A DNA stretch of 64,000 nucleotides from Bacilli bacterium (lineage in GTDB: Bacteria; Bacillota_I; Bacilli_A; RF39; UBA660): positions 9,660-73,659 of the forward strand of contig JAQUWE010000004.1 in NCBI GenBank assembly GCA_028693035.1, in the 5' to 3' direction. Below, piece after piece: positions 14,651-38,756 of the stretch. Within the stretch, counting starts at the first letter, position 1. Every line of letters begins with the position of its first letter. A program made the translations under genes and the position numbers. The notes under the pieces were generated by a model. It was given only the letters and a program-made list of their open reading frames with translations. It did not search any database and was not told the origin of the DNA.

Positions 14651-15997
14651 CTACATAAATTCTAATACCACTTGTTTATCATCAAAGTAACTTTTTTCAC
14701 CACAAATTATTTGATATGTTTCATGTCCTTTTCCAAGCAATAATAGTATATCATTTTTTTCTAATAATTGCACACCTTTTTGAATGGCATCTTTTCTGTT
14801 TACTATTACTTCATAATTGGTATTGCTAAGTCCCTTTACCATATCTTCTAAAATACTTGTAGGATCTTCCCATCTTGGGTTATCACTTGTAAAGATAGCG
14901 TAATCGCCTAAATCTGTCGCAATCCTAGCCATATGGGGTCTTTTGGTTTTGTCTCTATTTCCACCACACCCAATAATGACATATATTTTTCCTTCACATA
15001 TTTCTTTTGCTGAAACAATCATATTTTCTACAGCATCTGGCGTATGTGCATAATCTATAATAATAGTATTTTCATTATATCTTATTTTATCCATTCTACC
15101 AATAGGAGGCTGCACATTTTTGACAATTTGTCTTGTTTCTTTAAATCCTATTTCATTTAAAACAGCAATACAAGCTAACATATTATAAATATTGTATTTG
15201 CCAATCAAACTACTTTCGTATTCTTTTTTTTGTCCCATATATTCTATTGTAAATGTATTTTTATCGGAATTGATTTTGTAATCGGTTACCGTATAGTCTC
15301 CATTTTGAAATCCATAAAATAAAGTTTTATTGGCTTCTAAGACATAGTATAGATAGTAAGGATCATCACTATTGACAATCGCTTTTCCACCTTTTTTTAA
15401 TTGTTCAAATAGTTTTTGTTTTGCAAGAGCATAGTTTTCCATTGTTTTGTGAAAGTCTAAATGATCTCTTGTTAAATTGGTAAAAACAGCGTAATCAAAT
15501 AAAAGTCCCTCTACTCTTCCGTAAGAAAGGGCATGGCTGCTTACTTCTAAAGCAACATATTCTATTTTTTGTTCTTTACATTCTAATAGCATTTCATATA
15601 CATCTAAAAGATCAGGTGTTGTATTATTTAAATCTCTTACTTTAGAGTCCATATAAAAGCCAATGGTTCCAATGTATGCACTTTTTTTATGGAGTGCCTG
15701 CAAAGCTTCATAGAGAAGAAAGCAGGTTGTTGTTTTGCCATTGGTTCCCGTTACCCCTATTAGTTTTATATCAGCAACTAAGGGATATATATTTTCTTTT
15801 AAATATTTGGTTAAATAGTCTCTTGTATCTTCTACCAAAATGGTTTCTACAGAGTAAGATCCTTTTTCTGCAATAATGGTAGTGGCCCCTTTTTCGATGG
15901 CATCTTTGATGTACTCATGTCCATCGTGTACAGCGCCTTTTAATGCGACAAAGGTATCTCCTTTTTCTATTTTTCTAGAATCTATTTTGATTTTCAT
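14651..15997 (-). CDS. murE: UDP-MurNAc-L-Ala-D-Glu:meso-DAP ligase MurE (DNPR type)
   Basis: DSRKIEKGDTFVA, GVTGTNGKTTT, LEVSSHAL, and DNPR in FTSDNPRWEDP. AGAGGTGG plus 5 nt favours the ATG at 15997. Confidence 0.85.
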   Translation of the reverse strand: MKIKIDSRKIEKGDTFVALKGAVHDGHEYIKDAIEKGATTIIAEKGSYSVETILVEDTRDYLTKYLKENIYPLVADIKLIGVTGTNGKTTTCFLLYEALQALHKKSAYIGTIGFYMDSKVRDLNNTTPDLLDVYEMLLECKEQKIEYVALEVSSHALSYGRVEGLLFDYAVFTNLTRDHLDFHKTMENYALAKQKLFEQLKKGGKAIVNSDDPYYLYYVLEANKTLFYGFQNGDYTVTDYKINSDKNTFTIEYMGQKKEYESSLIGKYNIYNMLACIAVLNEIGFKETRQIVKNVQPPIGRMDKIRYNENTIIIDYAHTPDAVENMIVSAKEICEGKIYVIIGCGGNRDKTKRPHMARIATDLGDYAIFTSDNPRWEDPTSILEDMVKGLSNTNYEVIVNRKDAIQKGVQLLEKNDILLLLGKGHETYQIICGEKSYFDDKQVVLEFM

Positions 15998-16094
15998 ATA
16001 AACCACCTCTACTTTATTTTATGGCTTTATAAAAAAGAGGTGCTTTTTAGAAAAAAAGACCTTCTATAATAAGAAAGACTTTGTTATTTTTGTT

Positions 16095-17051
16095 CTAACT
16101 TTTGAAGAAAGAATCATTTTGTAAAAAATTGTGATTGTTTAAATCAATTTGGATATAATCAACCACTTTTTTTGCTTTTATAAGATATTCTATAACAAAA
16201 GATTGTTCTTTTGTTTCATCATAAGTAATTGTGAGTTCTAACAATCTTAAAAGCAAAAGATAAAGTAACTGGTTATAGAGATTTTTTGGTGGATGATTTT
16301 CATAAACACCTTGTATAAAACCATCAAAGAATTTTGCATTCTCCTGGCGATTAAAAGCAGATGCGATGGACCATCTAAAGTTCATTACAAAATAATCGAA
16401 ACAAAAAGATTCTATATCAATGACTGTAAGGGTGTGCTCTTTTTCTACCATCATATTTTTAGGATGCATATCACCGTGTATATATTCTTTTTTACAGTCT
16501 TTAAAACTTTCTTTTAGTGCATAGAGTCTATCTATAATATGTTCTATTTCTTTTCTACTAAAAACTTTGGAAAAGGCATCATAATTTTTATTATAAATGG
16601 AGGTAAATGCTTCAACTGTAGTTTGCGTTAACGCATCTATATCTTCTCTTTTTTCAAATTCTTTTTTTTGTGGTTCTTTTTCATTGATTTCTTTAAAATA
16701 GTTACCTGCTGTAACGCCATAAGTATAAAATTGTTCTTTTGAACAGGTATCATATAAAGTATTTAAAGCTTTGCCATCTATCCAACTATAGATACAATAT
16801 ATTTTATTTTCTATCGTTCCAGAGGTGATAAGCTGCATAGCTTTGGGTGTATGCTTTGTATAAATAGAGACTATTTCTTTTATATTTTCTAAAGTTAAAG
16901 GACTGTTATCCATTATTTTTAGAAAGAAAGTCTCTTTTCCGCGCATAACTTTTAAGACAGTCGCACCAGACTGACTATCTTGGATGGGTTCTAAAATATC
17001 AATTTCCTTTAAAAAATTTATTTTTCTTATATACTCTGTCATTTCTTTCAT
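16095..17051 (-). CDS. Phosphotransferase of the APH/choline-kinase family, substrate unknown
   Basis: Catalytic loop IHGDMHPKNMMV and the metal-binding VIDIESF motif, in a 318-aa protein of kinase-fold size. Confidence 0.7.
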   Translation of the reverse strand: MKEMTEYIRKINFLKEIDILEPIQDSQSGATVLKVMRGKETFFLKIMDNSPLTLENIKEIVSIYTKHTPKAMQLITSGTIENKIYCIYSWIDGKALNTLYDTCSKEQFYTYGVTAGNYFKEINEKEPQKKEFEKREDIDALTQTTVEAFTSIYNKNYDAFSKVFSRKEIEHIIDRLYALKESFKDCKKEYIHGDMHPKNMMVEKEHTLTVIDIESFCFDYFVMNFRWSIASAFNRQENAKFFDGFIQGVYENHPPKNLYNQLLYLLLLRLLELTITYDETKEQSFVIEYLIKAKKVVDYIQIDLNNHNFLQNDSFFKS

Positions 17052-17066
17052 CTCTATTCTTCTTTA

Positions 17067-17105
17067 TAAAAAAAGCTTTATAATAGTTTTTCATCTATTA
17101 TAAAG
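17067..17105 (-). terminator. Strong rho-independent terminator after the murE paralog
   Basis: Perfect 11-bp inverted repeat ctttataatag / ctattataaag with an 8-nt loop, then a 7-8 nt T-run on the minus strand. Confidence 0.75.
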
Positions 17106-17123
17106 TTTTTATTTGTATTTATT

Positions 17124-18503
17124 TTATGATTCTACCAAAGTTCCTTTTTTTTGCAAATATGTAGATACTTCTTTTTTATCACTAAAAGGAATTCTTTCAT
17201 TTCCAACAATCATCGCATCTTCATGCCCCTTGCCAAGAATTAAAAAGATATCATTTTCTTTTAATAAATCAATTCCTTTTATAATTGCTTTTTTACGATC
17301 TAAACAAACTTCATAATTGTCATAAGTAGCGCCTTCTGTCATATCTGCAACGATTTGTTTTGGGTCTTCAAAATGAAGATCATCGTTGGTAATAATGACG
17401 TGATCTGCTAAGTGACAAGCAAGAGATAACATAATAGGTCTTTTGGTTCTGTCTCTGTCTCCCGTACAACCAAAAGCTACATAGATTTTTCCTTTACAGA
17501 TGGTTTTTACTGTTTTTAATATTTTTTCCACAGCATCTGGTGTATGAGCATAATCAATAATAATACTATTTGTTTTATAATGAATGGTTTCCATACGTCC
17601 AATAGGCGCTTTTAATAAAGGAATGATTTCTTTTAACTTATCTGCAAAACCCATTTCACTTAAAATACAAATTGCACTTAACATATTATAAATATTATAT
17701 TGGGCGATCAGTTGCATGTCTATTTCATATATAATGCCTTTATGTTCATAAGAGAAAGTAGTTCCTTCTGCAGTCATTTTATAAGAATCAACCTTATAAT
17801 CTCCACCTGTAAATCCATAGGTAATATTGTCATTTCCTTCTAATAAAAAGTAATCTTTATATTTATCATCTATATTGATAAATGCTTTTCCATTTTTCTT
17901 AAGCTTTTTGAATAACAATTGTTTTGCAAGAGCATAGTTTCCCATGGTTTTGTGATAATCTAAATGATCTTGTGTAAGATTTGTAAACAAAGCATAATCA
18001 AATAAATATCCTTCTACCCTATTATAAGAAAGAGCATGACTGCTGACTTCCATAATAATATATTTACAGCCATCTTCCTTTGCTTGCATAAACATATCAT
18101 AACTATCCCAAATATCAGGACTTGAATTTGGTAAAGAAAATACTTTTTCTTCTAGGTAAAAACCATTGGTACCAATATAAGCACTTTTTATACCCATAAG
18201 TCTTAAAGCTTTATAAATAAGAAAGGCAGTTGTTGTTTTTCCATTGGTTCCTGTAATTCCTACAAATTTAACGTTTCTAAGTTTTGGATTGTAATGTTTT
18301 TTTAAATAAGACAAAAGATATTCTCTACTATCATCCACTATTTCATAGGGAATTTCATAGGTTCCTTCTTCTGCGATAATTTTAGAAGCTCCATTTTGAA
18401 TGGCTTTATCTATATAATCATGCCCATCTCCATCAATGCCTCTAACAGCAACAAAGATGTCTCCGTTTTTTACTTTTCTAGAATCTGCTGTTATATCTAA
18501 CAT
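17124..18503 (-). CDS. MurE-family Mur ligase paralog with a non-DNPR specificity motif
   Basis: DSRKVKNGDIFVA, GITGTNGKTTT and MEVSSHAL are MurE-like rather than MurF-like. NDDLHFEDP replaces DNPRWEDP. GAGGTG lies 7 nt upstream of the ATG. Confidence 0.8.
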   Translation of the reverse strand: MLDITADSRKVKNGDIFVAVRGIDGDGHDYIDKAIQNGASKIIAEEGTYEIPYEIVDDSREYLLSYLKKHYNPKLRNVKFVGITGTNGKTTTAFLIYKALRLMGIKSAYIGTNGFYLEEKVFSLPNSSPDIWDSYDMFMQAKEDGCKYIIMEVSSHALSYNRVEGYLFDYALFTNLTQDHLDYHKTMGNYALAKQLLFKKLKKNGKAFINIDDKYKDYFLLEGNDNITYGFTGGDYKVDSYKMTAEGTTFSYEHKGIIYEIDMQLIAQYNIYNMLSAICILSEMGFADKLKEIIPLLKAPIGRMETIHYKTNSIIIDYAHTPDAVEKILKTVKTICKGKIYVAFGCTGDRDRTKRPIMLSLACHLADHVIITNDDLHFEDPKQIVADMTEGATYDNYEVCLDRKKAIIKGIDLLKENDIFLILGKGHEDAMIVGNERIPFSDKKEVSTYLQKKGTLVES

Positions 18504-29674: not shown

Positions 29675-29935
29675 TCATCTTGATTCGACAATTAATTTGA
29701 TCGCGGTTCTCTCTTCTCCTTCAATCACAATATCAGTAAAGGCTGGAATACAAATCAGATTCTTGCCAGAAGGTGCCACAAAACCTCTAGCAATAGCGAT
29801 GGCTTTGATTGCTTGGTTTAAAGCGCCTGCCCCAATCGCTTGCATTTCTACAGATCCTTTTTCCCTAAATACATTGGCAAGTGCTCCTGCAACTGCATTT
29901 GGGTTTGATTTTGCTCTAACTTTAAGTGTTTCCAT
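29675..29935 (-). CDS. spoVS: Stage V sporulation protein S
   Basis: 86 aa: LKVRAKSNPNAVAGALA...AIGAGALNQAIKAIAIARG. Confidence 0.9.
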   Translation of the reverse strand: METLKVRAKSNPNAVAGALANVFREKGSVEMQAIGAGALNQAIKAIAIARGFVAPSGKNLICIPAFTDIVIEGEERTAIKLIVESR

Positions 29936-30140: not shown

Positions 30141-30214
30141 GCGGATGTAGTTTAATGGTAGAACCTCAGCCTTCCAAGCTGACTACGTGGGTTCGATTCC
30201 CATCATCCGCTCCA
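30141..30214 (+). tRNA. tRNA-Gly (anticodon UCC), CCA encoded
   Basis: I folded the cloverleaf by hand. Acceptor stem GCGGATG/CATCCGC, D-stem GTTT/GAAC, anticodon stem TCAGC/GCTGA with loop CTTCCAA, and T-arm GTGGG-TTCGATT-CCCAT. Confidence 0.95.
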
Positions 30215-30225
30215 TATAGAATTTC

Positions 30226-30255
30226 AAAACCTTGTATTCCAAGGTTTTTCTTTTG
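30226..30255 (+). terminator. Rho-independent terminator after tRNA-Gly
   Basis: 9-bp stem aaaaccttg / caaggtttt with a 5-nt loop, followed by a T-rich tail. Confidence 0.8.
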
Positions 30256-30380
30256 TTTATAAGGGATAAATCAACATTTTATCATGTTTTTTTCAATGCT
30301 ATCTTAGCCTTAAAAGTGCTTACTTTTGACAGAAACAAGTCCAAAAACAAGACCAAAATATATAAAAAGGAAAACAACGC

Positions 30381-31580
30381 TTACGCATTGTCTTTTTTCT
30401 TTGGAATTACATTTCCTATCTTATCTACTGTATAATTTGATTTAAAAAATATACTGACCGTAATAAACTGATATATAGAGGAAAAAACTTGCCCAATACC
30501 TGTGCAAAATGGATTTTTAAGTAACGACATTATCATTCTTAACATAGAAGAAATAATTTTATTCGATGTCATTTTAAAAGCAGACCATTCTAATTGTAAA
30601 TAACACGTTTTAATTTTATATATTGGATAAATAATAAAATTGATTATTTCAAAAGAAAAATAAATCATAGTTAATTTAAAATCTAGATCATAAAAACCAT
30701 ATAACAATCCAAACATAATTAAGCTTGTTGAAAATACTAAACCAATTAACTTATAGGCATTCCTTCTATGTATTTTATAATTAAAATGGTTCTTACTTAT
30801 ATCAATTTTTGCAATCGTAACAATAGCTTCTGCAGTATCCCACTGCGTATCTGTTATAAGTGCTATAAAAGTTAACGCAAGTGCATACTCTTCTCCAAAT
30901 TCAAGTGCATTTTTTAGACCAAATAAAAATATTAAAAAGAATGCTATACTATTGAATAATTCTACCGAATCATATTTAATACAATTGAAAATATTCAACT
31001 TAAATTTAAACTTATTACTATTCTTAATCATAATAAATAAAGTAAATAAAGCAAGAGGAACTAAGGTAATTATTACTATCATATTTTGATTTTTTGTTAT
31101 TAAAGATGTTCCAATCAATAAAACAAAATTTAATAAATTAAATATTAATGAATAGGTATTGGCTAATTCATTTTTTTCTTCATAATAAAGTTTATTCAAT
31201 GACATCGCAAATTCTAAACTTAAAAATAATTGTAAAACCGAATATATGGTAAAAGTTTTATATATGGATATATCCATATTCATAAAATGAATGTAATTAT
31301 CTATATTTAATATAACAATACTAAAGATTACTATTGAAATAATACTTCCTACAACAATGCCAGACATGACTGCATTATTATTTTTATCCTTTTCTTTACT
31401 TATATTCGCACCTGTTGAAAATACAGATTTAAGTATATAATAAATAAACTGTAAGGGATATGTAAGTGTAAATATATTTATAAGGTTTTTGTCTATTGTT
31501 ATCCCTAATAAAAACCAAGATAAAACAGGAATAAAGGATAATAGTGATAAATCAAAACCAATTTGTAATAATCTTTTCAT
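30381..31580 (-). CDS. Polytopic membrane protein, possibly a MOP/Wzx-like flippase (tentative)
   Basis: 399 aa with about 10-12 predicted TM helices. Coding sequence is very AT-rich. Confidence 0.45.
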   Translation of the reverse strand: MKRLLQIGFDLSLLSFIPVLSWFLLGITIDKNLINIFTLTYPLQFIYYILKSVFSTGANISKEKDKNNNAVMSGIVVGSIISIVIFSIVILNIDNYIHFMNMDISIYKTFTIYSVLQLFLSLEFAMSLNKLYYEEKNELANTYSLIFNLLNFVLLIGTSLITKNQNMIVIITLVPLALFTLFIMIKNSNKFKFKLNIFNCIKYDSVELFNSIAFFLIFLFGLKNALEFGEEYALALTFIALITDTQWDTAEAIVTIAKIDISKNHFNYKIHRRNAYKLIGLVFSTSLIMFGLLYGFYDLDFKLTMIYFSFEIINFIIYPIYKIKTCYLQLEWSAFKMTSNKIISSMLRMIMSLLKNPFCTGIGQVFSSIYQFITVSIFFKSNYTVDKIGNVIPKKKDNA

Positions 31581-31658
31581 ATTTTTAATACCTCTGATAA
31601 TTCTATAAAATGTATTATAATTTTACCATATTAAGTAAAAATACACCAGATATTACAT

Positions 31659-31694
31659 AAAAAATAAAAGACAATACTCATTACATTGTCTTTT
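31659..31694 (-). terminator. Rho-independent terminator after the MBL-fold gene
   Basis: 10-bp stem aaaagacaat / attgtctttt with a 9-nt loop, and a T-run on the minus strand. Confidence 0.7.
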
Positions 31695-31698
31695 CAAA

Positions 31699-32313
31699 TT
31701 AAATTTCAATGGTTTCTTCAATTTCTAATATTTTATAAGGAATACTAAAGTTTTTAAAATTATCATTCATATAATTTAAATCTGTTGGGTAAGCTTGATT
31801 ATCCATATGAACAGGCAAAACTAGTTTAGCCTCTAATTCTTTAGCAAACAATGAAGCCTCATACGAAGACATAGTTAAACCATATCCTGTAATTGGCATC
31901 GCTACTACATCCACTTTATAATTGTTATTAAAGCAAATCGTATCACTTGTAGCGTAGAGCCTTAATTTTCCATCATCAATTATATACCCTACATTTTCAA
32001 ATACTTCTTTCCCCTCTTTCAAGTTTGGATTATACCCATGAATGGCTTTAACGACCTCAATTTTAAAATCACCAAAATTTAAATAATCATTTTCTTTAAT
32101 AATATTAAATTTAATATTTGGAAATTCACTTTGCACTTCCTTTGTAGAATATATTGGTACATTTATGTTTTCCAAAATTTTTGCATTTATATGATCAGCA
32201 TGCTTATGGGTAATGAATACTATATCTGCTGTTTCCCAATCTCTCAAAAATTTTTCTTGATACTTTAATGTCCCTGGATCTATCAATACTTTTTTATTGT
32301 CCATTTCAATCAT
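31699..32313 (-). CDS. MBL-fold metallo-hydrolase (the reading frame and family N-terminus continue to 32349 without a canonical start)
   Basis: FITHKHADH (HxHxDH) motif. The in-frame upstream codons encode IIKITKYPQSCL, the usual family N-terminus, and begin at ATT/ATA. Confidence 0.75.
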   Translation of the reverse strand: MIEMDNKKVLIDPGTLKYQEKFLRDWETADIVFITHKHADHINAKILENINVPIYSTKEVQSEFPNIKFNIIKENDYLNFGDFKIEVVKAIHGYNPNLKEGKEVFENVGYIIDDGKLRLYATSDTICFNNNYKVDVVAMPITGYGLTMSSYEASLFAKELEAKLVLPVHMDNQAYPTDLNYMNDNFKNFSIPYKILEIEETIEI

Positions 32314-32810: not shown

Positions 32811-32961
32811 TTTATTTCTCCTTAACTAGTAATTTAATACTACATTTTTTTGAAAAAAATATTTGCTTATTATATATATATTGCAGGCATAGCTAGTATA
32901 ACATAAAACTATAAAAAATATAACATATGTGCTATAATTTCATTATATGGAGGGAATAAAT

Positions 32962-34287
32962 ATGAATATAAAAGAGGACGCAAAGCAATTTGCTATTAAT
33001 GCTCATAAAGGCCAAATAAGAAAAAATGAACCTGATAAACCAATGATTATGCATCCCATAAGTGTTGGCATGTTATTGGAAGAATATGGTTACAACGACA
33101 ATGTAGTTGCAGCTGGTTATTTACATGATGTTGTTGAGGATACAGAATACACTTTAGAAAATATTGAAAGAATATTTGGTAGTACTATCGCTGAACTTGT
33201 AAAAGGTGCATCGGAACCAGATAAATCATTATCTTGGAAAGAAAGAAAACAGCATACTATAGATGAAACTAAAGAATTATCTTTTGAAAATAAATTAGTT
33301 GTGTGTGCAGATAAAATAAATAATTTAGAAGATTTAATGTTAAAGTTTCAGAAAACTGGAATTAGGGATTTTTCACGTTTTAAGATGGGTGAAGAAGAAC
33401 AAAAATGGTATTATACTGGGGTATATGAAAGTCTTACTTTTGGTCAAGATAGCGAATTGCCAATTTTTTTGAGATTAAAGAATGTTTTAGATATTGTGTT
33501 TTACAATAAAAGAAACGAACAGTTGGAAGATATATTTTCGTCAGATCCAAATTATTACCATAAGTTAATCAGTCTACACTCTCAAAAAGTAGAACTACAA
33601 AAATTAAAAAAATTGTGTAGTTTACCTAAACCATTTGTTATTGAATTTTGTGGTACTCCACGAACTGGAAAAACCACTATATTAAACAATTTATATGTAT
33701 TTTTTAAAAAAGGTGGATTTTCCGTTAATATGATCGAGGAATTAACAACTTCAGATCATTATAAAAAGGTAGTATTACCAAAAATCCAACATATGCCAAC
33801 AGATAAATTAAATATAGCAATTATAAGAGAAGCTGAAAAACAACTTCGCCATGCTATATCAAAAAATGATGATATTATCCTCATTGATAGATCGTTAAAT
33901 GATAGGGTCATTTGGAATTACAGAAAATTTGTTCGTAACGATATGACAGAAGAACAATATAGACAAATTACAGAACAATATTCTACAGTTTCCAAAGAGT
34001 TAATAGATCTGTTAGTCATTGGATACACAGACGCCCAAACAGCCGTGAAAAGAGATTATATAAATAGTTTGGCCCTAGAAGAAAGTAGATTTTTAAATAT
34101 TGATAATATTCATGAATACAATAAAAATATGGAACTATCAATGAACGTTTTCAAAAAAAGTGTAAATAATATTTATAAGCTTGATACTACTGATATTTCA
34201 CCAAGAGATTCCTCAGTACTAATTGCTGAAAATATAATGCACATAATGAGAGAAAAATATATAAAAGCATTCAAAGATAGTATCTAA
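32962..34287 (+). CDS. Fusion protein: SpoT/RelA-type HD (alarmone-hydrolase-like) domain plus a C-terminal P-loop kinase-like domain
   Basis: N-terminal part: HKGQIRK..., MHPISV, YLHDVVEDT, FGSTIAELVKGASEP. C-terminal part: Walker A CGTPRTGKTT and Walker B-like IILIDRS. GGAGGGA lies 6 nt upstream of the ATG at 32962. Confidence 0.8.
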   Translation: MNIKEDAKQFAINAHKGQIRKNEPDKPMIMHPISVGMLLEEYGYNDNVVAAGYLHDVVEDTEYTLENIERIFGSTIAELVKGASEPDKSLSWKERKQHTIDETKELSFENKLVVCADKINNLEDLMLKFQKTGIRDFSRFKMGEEEQKWYYTGVYESLTFGQDSELPIFLRLKNVLDIVFYNKRNEQLEDIFSSDPNYYHKLISLHSQKVELQKLKKLCSLPKPFVIEFCGTPRTGKTTILNNLYVFFKKGGFSVNMIEELTTSDHYKKVVLPKIQHMPTDKLNIAIIREAEKQLRHAISKNDDIILIDRSLNDRVIWNYRKFVRNDMTEEQYRQITEQYSTVSKELIDLLVIGYTDAQTAVKRDYINSLALEESRFLNIDNIHEYNKNMELSMNVFKKSVNNIYKLDTTDISPRDSSVLIAENIMHIMREKYIKAFKDSI

Positions 34288-34346: not shown

Positions 34347-35324
34347 TTAAATGTTCCATTTTGGTGGATACATATAATCAATTTTTTCTTTTTTAACGCA
34401 ATATTTCTTTTTAATTTTAGTTCTATTAGACTTTAGACTAGGAACTGCCTGTCTACAATATTTATCTAATTCACAGAATATATTTTGACAATCAATAAGT
34501 TGTAAAGGTCTATTCCCAATTTTTTTAAAATCGAGATGTAATCTTTTAAATTCTTTGTCCTGATTTTCAAACATATAGAAAATAATATCTTCATTGGATT
34601 GGTTTCCCTTACTAGTAAAACACTTAGCAATTCCCCTTATTGAACCTGGACCTGCCACTGTAAACTCATCTTCTCCCCAGTTTACAACTTTACTATAATT
34701 GATATCAGTCACAAGCTGATATGCCATAAAGTTTCCTATTAAAGGATAAGACTTTATTAAAAGAAAAGCATCTTCCATATGCTTACACTTCATAATTTTA
34801 TTCTGCACCTTATCTATAACAAACATTTTTTCTAAAAGAGCCAAATGATTTTGATGCTTTCTATCGTATCCAAAAGCTTTATTAGCGCAACTTATATAAG
34901 CATCACTATATATTTTTATGCCTTCTTTTAGTGCACTTTCTAAAATGTTTGAGTAAACATTTTTATCAAAATTTTCTAAGGTAATCTCCCCTATATTTTT
35001 TTCTAATAATTCCCATGTAGATTCTTTATTAAATAGTTTAAAAAGAATAATTCTAAAAAGAATACTCTCATCAGGGTATTTTTTTCCATTGTATATGACA
35101 TTTTTAAGCAAGTATTGACTCACTCTATCGTTCACTCTATAGCTATTACAAAACTTATACTCTTGCAGTATCGGATCTTCTGTCCATGGGCCTCTTTCTC
35201 CATTATCCTTTTTTACGAAGATATTTTGTCTTTCAGCAGCAAAGTACCAATATAGATCATAAATTTCTTGTCGCTTTCTAAAATTTTCAACCACTGTACA
35301 TCTACCTTTCTTATAATTTTTCAT
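34347..35324 (-). CDS. Protein resembling the 5-hmdU DNA kinase helical / aGPT-pyrophosphorylase family of phage thymidine hypermodification (tentative)
   Basis: Motifs recalled from that family: ERQNIF...GERGPWTEDPILQEYKFCNSYRVNDRVSQ, and later GNFMAYQLVTDINYS...AGPGSIRG. No P-loop is present. The ORF itself is solid at 325 aa. Confidence 0.45.
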   Translation of the reverse strand: MKNYKKGRCTVVENFRKRQEIYDLYWYFAAERQNIFVKKDNGERGPWTEDPILQEYKFCNSYRVNDRVSQYLLKNVIYNGKKYPDESILFRIILFKLFNKESTWELLEKNIGEITLENFDKNVYSNILESALKEGIKIYSDAYISCANKAFGYDRKHQNHLALLEKMFVIDKVQNKIMKCKHMEDAFLLIKSYPLIGNFMAYQLVTDINYSKVVNWGEDEFTVAGPGSIRGIAKCFTSKGNQSNEDIIFYMFENQDKEFKRLHLDFKKIGNRPLQLIDCQNIFCELDKYCRQAVPSLKSNRTKIKKKYCVKKEKIDYMYPPKWNI

Positions 35325-35610
35325 TTATTATAACATCATGCTTATATTTTTTCACTCATTTTATCATTGTTTCTTCATCTTATATTTTATCTTTGAATCT
35401 ACTCTGTATGTTTTCTCTATAATACTATAAAGGAATGCCTAAACAGAAAGTAAAAATTGTATATATGTGATTTCAAAGTAGGTTCTTAGCTTTCCAATAT
35501 TGCTTTTTCCAACATATTATATATTGAAAAGAAAAGGAATCTGTAAAAGCTTAACTATAAGTACAACACCTTCTTTATCCTTTTCAATATGACAAGAAAG
35601 GAGTATATAA

Positions 35611-36474
35611 ATGAACAATTACGAAAAAGCACTACAAAAAATTAAACACGACGAAAAATGTAAACCAAAAGGTATGTATTATATAGGCGCAGCAGGTCCT
35701 ACGGGTCCAACAGGTCCACCTGGACCAGCTGGAGGTCCTACGGGTCCGACAGGTCCAACCGGGCCAACGGGGCCAACCGGGCCAACCGGGCCAACGGGAC
35801 CAACTGGGCCTGGCGGTCTTCTTGGTGCAACGGGTCCAACCGGGCCAACGGGACCAACCGGACCTGACGGGCTTCTTGGTGCAACAGGACCAACCGGACC
35901 AACTGGACCTGACGGGCTTCTTGGCGCAACAGGACCAACGGGGCCAACGGGTCCAGCAGGCGTTGATGGCATTATAGGTCCAACAGGTCCAACCGGACCA
36001 ACTGGACCTGACGGGCTTCTTGGCGCAACGGGTCCAACGGGGCCAACGGGCCCAACAGGACCAGCTGCTCTTGGAGCTCTTGAAGTTCAATTGCAAACTG
36101 GTGCATTTCAGGAAATTACTGATGCTTCTGCAATAGCTTTCAACACGGTTATTACGAATAATGCACCTAATATTACTTATGATACAACAACAGGTATTTT
36201 CACAATTACTACACCCGGACTATATTATATCAACTGGTGGGTCGCTGCCGATTCAGCACCAGTGGTAAATACTATCAATTTAGCAATCGCAACATCTGCC
36301 GGTCAAAACATTCAGGCATCATCAAATATTGCTGCACTTAATTTTAGCGGAAATGCTTTATTAAATGTTACAACTGCTCCACTAACTTTCTCATTAGTCA
36401 ATCAAAGTGGCGGCTCAATATTCATCGGAGAATATCTAGCACAAGCTGATTTAACTGTTATCCAGCTTATATAA
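35611..36474 (+). CDS. Collagen-like triple-helix repeat protein with a globular C-terminal domain (BclA-like architecture)
   Basis: About 125 aa of G-X-Y triplets, mostly GPT, followed by a domain of about 135 aa rich in beta-strand-type sequence. GAAAGGAG lies 7 nt upstream of the ATG. Confidence 0.85.
35695..36066 (+). repeat. GC-rich 9-bp-periodic (GGnCCnACn) coding repeat with higher-order [14 protein letters not shown](D) units
   Basis: Read directly from the sequence. All six frames are open here, which generates the spurious antisense ORFs in the track. Confidence 0.9.
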
Positions 36475-37721: not shown

Positions 37722-37757
37722 ACTTATAAAAGTACCTATACTTTATAAGTTTTTTTA
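37722..37757. terminator. Hairpin terminator between the small ORF and the lysin gene
   Basis: acttataaaagta / tactttataagt (12 bp with one bulge) and a ccta loop, followed by a T-run. Confidence 0.65.
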
Positions 37758-38756
37758 TTTTATAACCAAAATTTGTCCTGGATAAATTACATTAGGATTA
37801 CTGCCAATCGTTTTACGATTTTTTTCATATAACGTTTTCCAACTCATTCCATATTTGGCTGCGATAGAACTTAAGTTATCTCCCTTTTGTACCTTATAAG
37901 TAACAGAACTAGATTGACTACTGCTATTTGGGATTTTTAAAATTTGTCCTACTTGTATTTTATTGGGATCAGCAATGCTATTTGCACTTGCTATTTCCTT
38001 GTAACGTGTCCCATTTCCATAAAATTTTTGGGCAATGGTCCACAAACTATCTCCCTTTTGTACTTTATATGTGACATCGCTGGGAGTTGGTGTTGGGGTA
38101 GGTGTAGGCTCTGGTTCTACACGAGGACTGTCTGTATAATGATTCAATCCTTGTGAAACAATAAGTTCATGATAATCTTTATAAGCAATGTTCATGTCGA
38201 CGTCACCCGTAATTCCATTGACCCTACCTGTACTACTATACTGCCATATTCCAAATGGTTTTTCATATGTAGGCCTACTAGCCCACTGTGCAAGCCATTT
38301 GTCATAAGAATTTAATTCTGGACTATTTAAGATGGTACGGAACCAATGTAAGTTTGCATAGATCATCGCATAATATCCGTTTTCTTCAAGTGTCTGACAA
38401 AAAGTGGTACAAATATCTGTATAGGTTTGATTAGAGGCACCACCATGTGCTTCTTTCCAACCATCTCCATCTTCCATGTCAATCACAATAGGATAAGTTG
38501 GCTTATAGCCTTTAATACTATTTAACATACCGGCTACTTCTTGTTTGGCTTCTTCTACATTTAAAGCATATGAATAGTGGTAAAAACCATAAGGAATACC
38601 ATAACGTTCACAGGCATCCGCATAGGTTCTAAACATCTTATCTTCATGATAATAGCCATACCCAGAACGTATGATTACAAAATCTACTTGTTCTTTTACT
38701 TTAGAAAAGTCTATATTTCCTTGATAATAAGAAATATCAATTCCACGTTTTTCGAT
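37755..38756 (-). CDS. GH25 muramidase with two C-terminal LysM domains and no signal peptide (endolysin-like); apparent ATC start
   Basis: The conserved GH25 N-terminus RGIDISYYQGNIDF lies upstream of the first ATG (38636), in frame. AGGAGG sits 6 nt upstream of ATC at 38756. A PTPTPTPTP linker is followed by two YKVQKGD...LysM repeats. Confidence 0.75.
   Translation of the reverse strand: MEKRGIDISYYQGNIDFSKVKEQVDFVIIRSGYGYYHEDKMFRTYADACERYGIPYGFYHYSYALNVEEAKQEVAGMLNSIKGYKPTYPIVIDMEDGDGWKEAHGGASNQTYTDICTTFCQTLEENGYYAMIYANLHWFRTILNSPELNSYDKWLAQWASRPTYEKPFGIWQYSSTGRVNGITGDVDMNIAYKDYHELIVSQGLNHYTDSPRVEPEPTPTPTPTPSDVTYKVQKGDSLWTIAQKFYGNGTRYKEIASANSIADPNKIQVGQILKIPNSSSQSSSVTYKVQKGDNLSSIAAKYGMSWKTLYEKNRKTIGSNPNVIYPGQILVIK

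Follow-up and report, generated by a model that had tools for sequence, protein, structure and literature searches.

What might a protein do that carries an alarmone hydrolase and a P-loop kinase on a single chain? The question is raised by a gene at 32962..34287 of a 64,000-nucleotide stretch of DNA from a Bacilli bacterium (GenBank assembly GCA_028693035.1, contig JAQUWE010000004.1, positions 9,660 to 73,659; the whole stretch is called the window below). Within the RelA/SpoT superfamily, no branch is less understood than the small alarmone hydrolases (SAHs), whose possible substrates, according to recent work, include ppApp, NADPH, and even the 3′ ends of tRNA. The gene described here ties an SAH permanently to a nucleotide kinase, and the fusion is conserved over a lineage of abundant uncultured Bacilli of the human and animal gut. 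The hydrolase is of a known type, the kinase family is little known, and the fusion is genuine, with its limits correctly drawn. Both folds are present, both active sites are conserved, the gene is spread over the lineage without partner genes, and the kinase is recurrently fused to hydrolases. We tentatively read the product as a stand-alone, chromosomally inherited, bifunctional enzyme of nucleotide metabolism, with less confidence in any specific substrate than in this general statement.

An SAH domain and a P-loop kinase domain are joined in one gene

The gene and its parts are as follows (all on the + strand; aa, amino acids).

32962..34287, +, SAH-kinase fusion gene; 441 aa, identical to NCBI MDD3340941.1, 'HD domain-containing protein'
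32930..32938, +, putative promoter, an extended −10 element TGcTATAAT (TGnTATAAT), from inspection of the sequence
32949..32954, +, ribosome-binding site GGAGGG, 7 nt before the ATG at 32962
32962..33516, +, SAH domain, aa 1-185 (HD_4, RelH/Lmo0812-like), from Pfam, PDB sequences, Foldseek, and motifs
33517..34284, +, C-terminal module, aa 186-441, a long lead-in helix (aa 196-218) and a P-loop kinase of thymidylate kinase (TMK)/deoxynucleoside kinase (dNK) fold, from Foldseek, AAA_28, and the family profile
33652..33678, +, Walker A/P-loop GTPRTGKTT, aa 231-239, with an Arg inside the loop, from alignments
33886..33915, +, DRSLNDRVIW, aa 309-318, after a Walker-B-like strand, from alignments
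34048..34089, +, LID-like basic segment KRDY...ALEESR, aa 363-376, with R364 conserved, from alignments

The open reading frame (ORF) as listed spans 32947..34287 (+). Its true start is the ATG at 32962, which the ribosome-binding site precedes, and the homologues also begin with MNIK; this is the start chosen in an earlier annotation made by a model from the letters of the window (the initial annotation). The putative extended −10 element escaped a consensus promoter scan because its −35 is poor. The 5′ untranslated region is only ~20 nt long, and a search for a riboswitch or leader RNA upstream of the gene gave zero Rfam matches. All the motifs named in the initial annotation were found in the translation, namely H31, H55-D56, E59-D60, FGSTIAELVKG, GTPRTGKTT, and IILIDRS (aa 305-311). 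Its proposal of a two-domain fusion also holds: across 32 homologues (60-81% identity), the catalytic and motif residues of either domain vary little or not at all, so the fusion is genuine and no chance joining.

The N-terminal domain matches Pfam HD_4 (PF13328) with an E-value of 1.1e-15 (58.1 bits against a cut-off of 27.2), and NCBIfam spoT_relA (TIGR00691) matches the hydrolase part only, with an E-value of 1.6e-20. The closest PDB sequence is Listeria Lmo0812 (4yf1; E 1.2e-34, residues 4-170, 38-41% identity), followed by Drosophila and human Mesh1, Leptospira and Corynebacterium RelH, and then the hydrolase domains of long Rel proteins. An AlphaFold2 (AF2) model of the fusion protein was built on 32 homologues and reached a pLDDT of 92.8 and a pTM of 0.89. 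In Foldseek, the SAH half of the model matches 4yf1, 7qoc, 7qoe, and 3nqw with a probability of 1.00 and TM-scores of 0.77-0.91 (normalised by target).

Six catalytic motifs are described for SAHs: HD1 Arg, HD2 His, HD3 His-Asp, HD4 Glu-Asp, HD5 Asp-Lys/Arg, and HD6 Asn (PMC9293644). All of them are present in the fusion (R20, H31, H55-D56, E59-D60, D117-K118, and N121) and conserved in 31-32 of the 32 homologues; the hydrolase domain therefore looks catalytically competent, as judged from its residues. The Tyr that follows the conserved Pro in the HD1/HD2 loop of Lmo0812 and Drosophila Mesh1 is an invariant Met in the fusion family. Lmo0812 and the RelH proteins belong to the MixSpo (RelH) subfamily of SAHs (PMC10434055), and the N-terminal domain would, indirectly through its best PDB relative Lmo0812, be an SAH of the same RelH/Lmo0812 (MixSpo) kind. 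With HD_4 above threshold, an SAH fold, and the six motifs, its description as a SpoT/Mesh1-type hydrolase domain is borne out.

The fold and the six HD motifs are common to the fusion and the RelH/MixSpo SAHs (C. glutamicum RelH 7qod, Leptospira RelH 7qoe, and Lmo0812 4yf1), and from this likeness Mn2+-dependent 3′-pyrophosphohydrolysis may be presumed. Known SAHs are single-domain proteins of ~180-200 aa, whereas a kinase of ~255 aa is added in the fusion, and one third of the loci also encode a second HD domain. It is thus not 'small' in the single-domain sense, the hydrolase domain being followed by a 255-aa kinase module. Long RelA/SpoT homologues (RSHs; Rel/SpoT) have a homologous hydrolase domain, likewise joined on one chain to another catalytic domain that handles nucleotides; there, however, the second domain is a synthetase of nucleotidyltransferase fold, whereas the fusion has a P-loop kinase and no TGS or ACT domains. 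Metazoan MESH1, an NADPH phosphatase and ppGpp hydrolase, is among the best sequence and fold matches and gives a precedent for an SAH acting on a non-alarmone 2′/3′-phosphorylated nucleotide, but it has no kinase domain and is only ~29% identical to the fusion.

The C-terminal domain resembles thymidylate and deoxynucleoside kinases

The C-terminal half was compared with the PDB through Foldseek. The matches were AbmG (albomycin kinase, 8j5f), TMK (3hjn and 3tmk), deoxyadenosine kinase (dAK) of Giardia and Mycoplasma (8puu and 2jas), human deoxycytidine kinase (dCK; 2no9), and Drosophila dNK. Pfam AAA_28 (cut-off 27 bits) is marginal: the whole protein scores 26.0 bits and the C-terminal domain by itself 27.3 bits. 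The P-loop residues G, T, P, R, G, K, and T are kept in 31-32 of the 32 fusion homologues. D309, R310, S311, N313, D314, and W318 are invariant or nearly invariant in them. Further conserved polar residues lie beyond the ATP site (E260, T262, S264, N313, D314, W318, Y366, N382, Y386, and N387), which argues for a specific second substrate.

An exhaustive HMMER search with the C-terminal domain against 1.84 billion representative proteins yielded 409 relatives at E ≤ 1e-3, and many features of the domain are kept where it stands alone. The alignment of stand-alone members retains the P-loop as GTPR[TS]GKT[TS], in which G, G, and K are invariant, a Glu after strand 2, DR[GS]xxDxxxW with the D, R, D, and W of the fusion homologues, and an Arg in the LID-like segment. 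Among 33 stand-alone relatives, 29 match AAA_28 (best 2e-14), 11 match Thymidylate_kin, and 4 match dNK in Pfam. The profile of the stand-alone family, when run against PDB sequences, aligns with dAK (M. mycoides and Giardia), deoxyguanosine kinase (dGK), and TMK over most of its length.

The fold and the Glu after strand 2 are shared with TMK, dCK/dGK/dAK, Drosophila dNK, AbmG, and AAA_28, a family that includes the ribosylnicotinamide kinase domain of NadR; the identity is only 11-21% and the Pfam scores lie at the gathering threshold or under it. We take the Arg inside the P-loop (as in class I thymidylate kinases), the DRx motif, and the LID-like basic segment to be equivalent to the motifs of TMK/dNK kinases. 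In this assignment, the DRSLNDRVIW segment would presumably be the counterpart of the DR(Y/H)/ERS motif, and the P-loop Arg together with the DRx spacing is, in our view, reminiscent of class I thymidylate kinases. The family has features of its own, a long N-terminal helix and a C-terminal extension. We conclude that the C-terminal domain belongs to a small, uncharacterised family of TMK/dNK-like small-molecule kinases. This agrees with the earlier description of the C-terminus as a Walker-A kinase-like domain, given the conserved P-loop and the TMK/dNK fold found with AF2 and Foldseek. That description had left the choice between a nucleotide and a polynucleotide kinase; the searches return small-molecule nucleoside and nucleoside monophosphate (NMP) kinases, and the polynucleotide option is not favoured, since none of the polynucleotide kinases (Pnk, Clp1, and Grc3) is among the 60 best PDB sequence matches or the 50 best fold matches listed.

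A P-loop domain next to a hydrolase may also be read as mainly a sensor of ATP, GTP, or NMP that switches the SAH allosterically and carries no metabolic flux. In long RSHs an adjacent nucleotide-binding domain controls the hydrolase, and SAHs are regulated via oligomerisation (PMC9293644); these precedents favour such a sensor, and the pTM of the model, 0.89, suggests a fixed interdomain arrangement. However, the Lys and Thr of Walker A, the Glu after strand 2, the DR, and the LID Arg are kept even in stand-alone members that have no hydrolase, and we consider a regulated hydrolase of this sort unlikely.

The kinase family is repeatedly fused to nucleotide hydrolases

The relatives of the C-terminal domain occur in several forms: alone (~240-310 aa), behind HD_4, behind other HD domains, and before a Nudix-like domain. 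HD_4 is fused to the kinase in at least 7 further clusters at 50% identity in addition to the window's own. Other HD domains that precede the kinase are a generic HD (P0134) and a dGTPase-like N-terminus (P0228). In a sister architecture of ~450 aa (P0179-P0269), an N-terminal TMK-like kinase is followed by a C-terminal domain of ~200 aa with a Nudix-box-like motif, as seen in an alignment of 38 sequences. An AF2 model of this Nudix-fused form (pLDDT 92.3) matches the Tm1382 Nudix structure 3e57 at 1e-8 with its C-terminal half, and TMK, dCK, and dNK with its N-terminal half. No Pfam, NCBIfam, or PADLOC family covers the kinase-Nudix architecture, and a few copies of it lie on IMG/VR contigs (viral contig locus L093). 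The kinase family is thereby joined to at least three unrelated (pyro)phosphohydrolase folds that act on free nucleotides. This recurrent fusion argues that kinase and hydrolase work in one small-molecule nucleotide pathway, and it is the strongest argument available. The fusions and the stand-alone forms together point to free-nucleotide metabolism.

The two-domain fusion itself is widespread. The best 120 database matches, clustered at 90% identity, each span no less than 98% of the query, with identities of 60-100%; at least 120 such clusters thus exist, the number being a lower bound. The homologues fall into two size classes of about 445 aa and about 652 aa. The ~652-aa class carries an extra N-terminal HD domain of ~205 aa, weakly YedJ/PRK10119-like (PDB 2pq7 and 2pjq), and this extra domain was found in 32 of 87 fetched loci (e.g., L003:8001-9959, L004, and L005), giving a three-domain HD + SAH + kinase protein. 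When one genome per species of the Genome Taxonomy Database (GTDB) was scanned, 461 stretches encoded a relative of the fusion protein. The best 80 of the 461 are nearly all full-length, with 47-81% identity, and come nearly all from gut metagenome-assembled genomes (MAGs) labelled Bacilli, Mycoplasmatota/Tenericutes, or 'Clostridium sp. CAG:524 / CAG:433'. Divergent clusters, whose kinase parts are 27-45% identical, retain the HD_4 + kinase architecture. The initial annotation had called the fusion unusual. It is uncharacterised insofar as no description of an SAH-kinase fusion was found in the profile libraries or literature searched, but it is no one-off, being represented by at least 120 clusters and ~80 species-level genomes.

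A proposed role in nucleotide recycling

In the scheme that we tentatively favour, the SAH domain would remove the 3′-pyrophosphate from (pp)pGpp and/or (pp)pApp, or a 2′/3′-phosphate from a related nucleotide as Mesh1 does, and the ATP-dependent kinase would add phosphate at the 5′ position of a free nucleoside or NMP. Two consecutive recycling steps would then be carried out by one polypeptide: pGpp or ppGpp would be converted to GMP or GDP plus pyrophosphate, and the product re-phosphorylated into the nucleoside di- and triphosphate pool. The guanylate kinase of Firmicutes is sensitive to (p)ppGpp. In a speculative version, the fusion might take pGpp to GMP and on to GDP, bypassing that enzyme. 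A phosphorylation and pyrophosphate-removal pair acting on nucleotides, as the initial annotation had suggested, is the most reasonable reading, yet it is one that we infer, as are the substrates, the reaction order, and the coupling between the domains.

Several points weigh against this scheme or limit its detail. All members of the family come from uncultured organisms, and every activity is predicted. Pfam places the C-terminal domain no closer than at the margin of a family, and the sequence does not reveal the phosphate acceptor of this domain. The top PDB match of the kinase family profile is the SRP-receptor GTPase FtsY (SRP54 also matches), confined to the N-terminal P-loop half, which leaves a little room for a non-kinase NTPase role. 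The window protein has a Ser at position 375 (codon 34084..34086), where 31 of 32 homologues have an Arg in the LID-like ALExRRF; R376 is kept, and Ser375 may affect kinase activity. The last point concerns the source of an alarmone. The synthetase part and C-terminal domains of Firmicute Rel gave no tblastn match in 2.3 Mb of lineage DNA, a small and redundant sample of low power, and neither did the usual Rel neighbours apt, dtd, and recJ. A tblastn search with the Rel synthetase domain matched nothing in any fusion locus, although a divergent toxic small alarmone synthetase (toxSAS) might escape such a search. Metazoan MESH1 and orphan bacterial SAHs are likewise without an adjacent toxic synthetase. 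If the lineage has no synthetase, the substrate of the hydrolase is probably another one, e.g., NADPH or a 3′-phospho-nucleotide as for metazoan Mesh1.

The failure to detect a synthetase may be turned around. If the fusion were an enzyme with opposing activities, built like Rel or PFK2/FBPase2, a phosphorylated nucleotide messenger would be synthesised by the P-loop domain, e.g., a 3′- or 2′-phosphorylated purine nucleotide, and the SAH would degrade it with no need of an RSH-type synthetase. The Rel search of the 2.3 Mb of lineage DNA agrees with this, low as its power is, and both active sites are co-conserved down to 27-45% kinase identity. SAH and Mesh1 proteins act on 2′/3′-(pyro)phosphates, with NADPH and 3′-phosphoadenosine 5′-phosphosulfate (PAPS) complexes in the PDB match list and the literature concurring, and two members of the kinase family show weak 6PF2K matches. 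However, these 6PF2K matches reach only E-values of about 1e-3, and kinases of TMK/dNK fold act, as is generally known, on a 5′-OH or 5′-phosphate and not on a 2′/3′-OH. There is no sign of 3′-kinase chemistry here, and the stand-alone and Nudix-fused kinases fit salvage or recycling equally well. We regard the messenger-making enzyme as improbable. Its widest form, in which the fusion would be a self-contained writer/eraser pair, giving a reduced-genome gut lineage an alarmone-like circuit without an RSH-type synthetase and making the Nudix- and HD-fused kinases parallel versions of it, seems to us very improbable.

The fusion gives a direct handle on the in vivo substrate and product of this class of SAH, because the acceptor of the kinase should be chemically linked to the product or substrate of the hydrolase. 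It bears on the management of alarmone and nucleotide pools in reduced-genome gut bacteria, and the kinase family is itself an uncharacterised module of nucleotide metabolism, fused also to Nudix and other HD hydrolases. Even an ordinary salvage enzyme would mean a new annotation for hundreds of MAG proteins labelled just 'HD domain-containing protein'. For specialists of the stringent response, the fusion is notable and easy to test, and the more dramatic readings of its context, considered below, are unsupported.

The fusion gene stands alone on the chromosome

Small alarmone hydrolases occur in toxin-antitoxin and phage settings (PMC7229694), and the initial annotation had pointed to such a toxin-antitoxin or anti-phage context. 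The surroundings of the gene do not bear this out. ORFs were called in 85 loci, and three neighbours per side were clustered. No conserved neighbour emerged, and a conserved operon was rejected as an explanation, the best neighbour family being present in 9 of the 85 loci. The flanking genes vary and are mostly of a housekeeping kind; among them are S-adenosylmethionine synthase with ThiF, SRP54, asparagine synthase, ABC transporters, and recombinases. In one locus (L177:8001-11115), dnaG-sigA-trmK, the region of the macromolecular-synthesis operon, begins 20 nt downstream of a divergent HD_4-kinase homologue (P0393). PADLOC gave no relevant match for the fusion protein, its neighbours, or relatives in the kinase family. 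With no conserved neighbour, no PADLOC match, no Rel-type synthetase gene, and housekeeping contexts, a toxin-antitoxin or anti-phage setting is not supported.

The fusion gene shows no sign of mobility either. Its two-domain form was found neither in 50,697 phage records, in which the kinase has no relative detectable by tblastn, nor in 2.9 million IMG/VR contigs and 72,556 plasmids, where matches cover the HD part only. BFVD returned single-domain structural matches only. No attachment-site (att)-like repeat of the nearby tRNA-Gly was found, and there is no clear island. We therefore rejected a mobile-element origin. The surrounding DNA is AT-rich chromosomal DNA (about 30% G+C), and the window carries the housekeeping genes PriA, fmt, two Mur ligases, SufB/SufU, SpoVS, and frr. 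The fusion gene is monocistronic and vertically conserved and belongs to no cassette.

The same searches bear on nucleic-acid end healing in the manner of T4 Pnk or the Runella HD-Pnk. The SAH would clear a 3′-phosphate or 3′-pyrophosphate, e.g., from a tRNA CCA end pyrophosphorylated by a toxSAS, and the kinase would act on 5′-OH ends. HD-Pnk begins with an HD phosphoesterase and ends with a P-loop kinase (PMC6097658), the identical domain order, and some SAHs strip 3′-pyrophosphate from tRNA, an action that has been likened to the 3′-phosphatase of Pnk (bioRxiv 10.1101/2021.04.30.441581). Like Runella slithyformis HD-Pnk and T4 Pnk, the fusion holds a phosphohydrolase and a P-loop kinase in one chain, but the likeness is architectural only. 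The fusion kinase resembles small-molecule kinases, which dominate the match lists from which Pnk is missing; it is set apart from Pnk by these PDB and fold lists and by no direct sequence comparison with HD-Pnk. HD-Pnk is encoded together with a ligase and Tpt1 in a cluster for RNA repair, whereas the fusion gene has no conserved neighbours, and neither a ligase nor any other repair gene was a conserved neighbour in the 85 loci. The phage genomes gave no tblastn match, and no Rel-type synthetase gene lies in the fusion loci. End healing by the fusion is accordingly, in our estimate, quite unlikely.

A protein of ~356 aa without a Pfam match but with an HD-like signature (…NLDHS…GLFHDIATP…; L001:6865-7935) recurs near the fusion gene in 8 of 87 loci, once directly upstream, and near the HMUDK_hel gene described below in 6 of 84 loci (e.g., L128).

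The convergent neighbour is not a conserved partner

The gene on the other side of the fusion's 3′ end had been said to resemble phage enzymes that act on 5-hydroxymethyldeoxyuridine (5-hmdU) DNA.

34347..35324, −, HMUDK_hel/aGPT-Pplase-clade-1-like protein, convergent with the fusion gene; Pfam E 1.8e-105; NCBI MDD3340942.1, 'putative DNA base hypermodification protein'

The resemblance is real. The neighbour is a full-length member of the Pfam family, and its homologues include phage proteins that bear the annotation 'aGPT-pyrophosphorylase clade 1' as well as gp55 of phage M6 (E 1e-24), whose gene follows that of the validated 5-hmdU DNA kinase gp54. Gp55 is dispensable for the reconstituted M6 reaction (PMC8989533). 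In the window, the HMUDK_hel gene is solitary and has a promoter-like site of its own at 35355..35327.

A functional link between this neighbour and the fusion finds no such backing. Of 88 loci, just 2 have HMUDK_hel next to the fusion gene, and the relative orientation of the two genes differs between them: convergent in the window, and downstream on the same strand in a second locus (L061:9968-12372), where the fusion protein is 57% identical, HMUDK_hel is 71% identical, and the two are separated by a 65-nt gap. Approached from the other side, none of 84 loci with close HMUDK_hel homologues (L096-L175 and L089-L092) has the fusion gene within 6 kb. The adjacency is unconserved from either side and is therefore best treated as a coincidence or a loose nucleotide-metabolism neighbourhood, with HMUDK_hel outside any shared system.

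A more specific reading would make the fusion a toxin-antitoxin or anti-phage component, or a base-hypermodification partner whose kinase activates the base while the neighbour transfers the group. The occurrence of SAHs in toxin-antitoxin and phage settings, cited above, speaks for it. So does the adjacency in the two loci, the second of which mirrors the phage M6 gp54-gp55 order of kinase followed by HMUDK_hel. In both loci, as in M6, a P-loop kinase adjoins HMUDK_hel; the fusion kinase, however, is of a different family, the adjacency is unconserved, and the rest of the hypermodification cluster is absent. Pfam HMUDK_HMUD1 gave no match to the fusion protein at E ≤ 0.1, whereas gp54 itself scores 7.7e-18, and in a BLASTP comparison of the fusion C-terminal domain with M6 gp54 only the P-loop aligned, with an E-value of 0.27. 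With just the P-loop in common with gp54, the kinase domain was rejected as a 5-hydroxymethyluridine DNA kinase (5-HMUDK). No ADDT gene and no thymidylate-synthase-like hydroxymethylase gene adjoins the fusion gene in the window. Taken with the absence of PADLOC matches, of a conserved neighbour, and of the two-domain form in the phage, virus, and plasmid sets, these results leave this last reading extremely improbable, and we retain the chromosomal nucleotide-metabolism enzyme as the preferred one.

HMUDK_hel has contexts of its own. The protein is 75-80% conserved over very many gut Bacilli MAGs. Directly upstream of it on the same strand lies a radical SAM/SPASM gene (~334 aa) in 55 of the 84 loci, and an AP_endonuc_2 TIM-barrel gene in 7 of them. 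We know of no description of this chromosomal pair of a radical SAM-SPASM gene and HMUDK_hel, although no literature search was aimed at it. Some other HMUDK_hel contexts hold nucleotide-salvage genes, including NTPase_I-T, PNP, Nudix, PnuC, and an NT5C-nucleoside hydrolase.

Other features of the window

Several genes away from the fusion attracted attention. A tRNA-Gly(UCC) at 30141..30214 is followed by the part of the window with the lowest G+C (24.7% over 30-32 kb). This part (within 30141..32313) encodes a 399-aa multi-pass membrane protein without a Pfam match, a metallo-β-lactamase (MBL)-fold hydrolase, and an ASCH-like/phrog_19935 protein. At 14651..18503 (−), paralogous MurE-like Mur ligases of 451 and 459 aa lie on either side of a phosphotransferase gene of the APH family (16095..17051). 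A GH25 muramidase with two LysM repeats is encoded at 37755..38636 (−); its GH25 profile match starts only at position 40, and the protein may be truncated at the N-terminus or its start mis-called. The product of the gene at 35611..36474 (+) is collagen-like: it contains repeated GPT triplets (9-nt periodic DNA repeats), and its C-terminal domain resembles C1q/BclA_C. It is an exosporium-type BclA-like glycoprotein, and SpoVS is encoded close by at 29675..29935.

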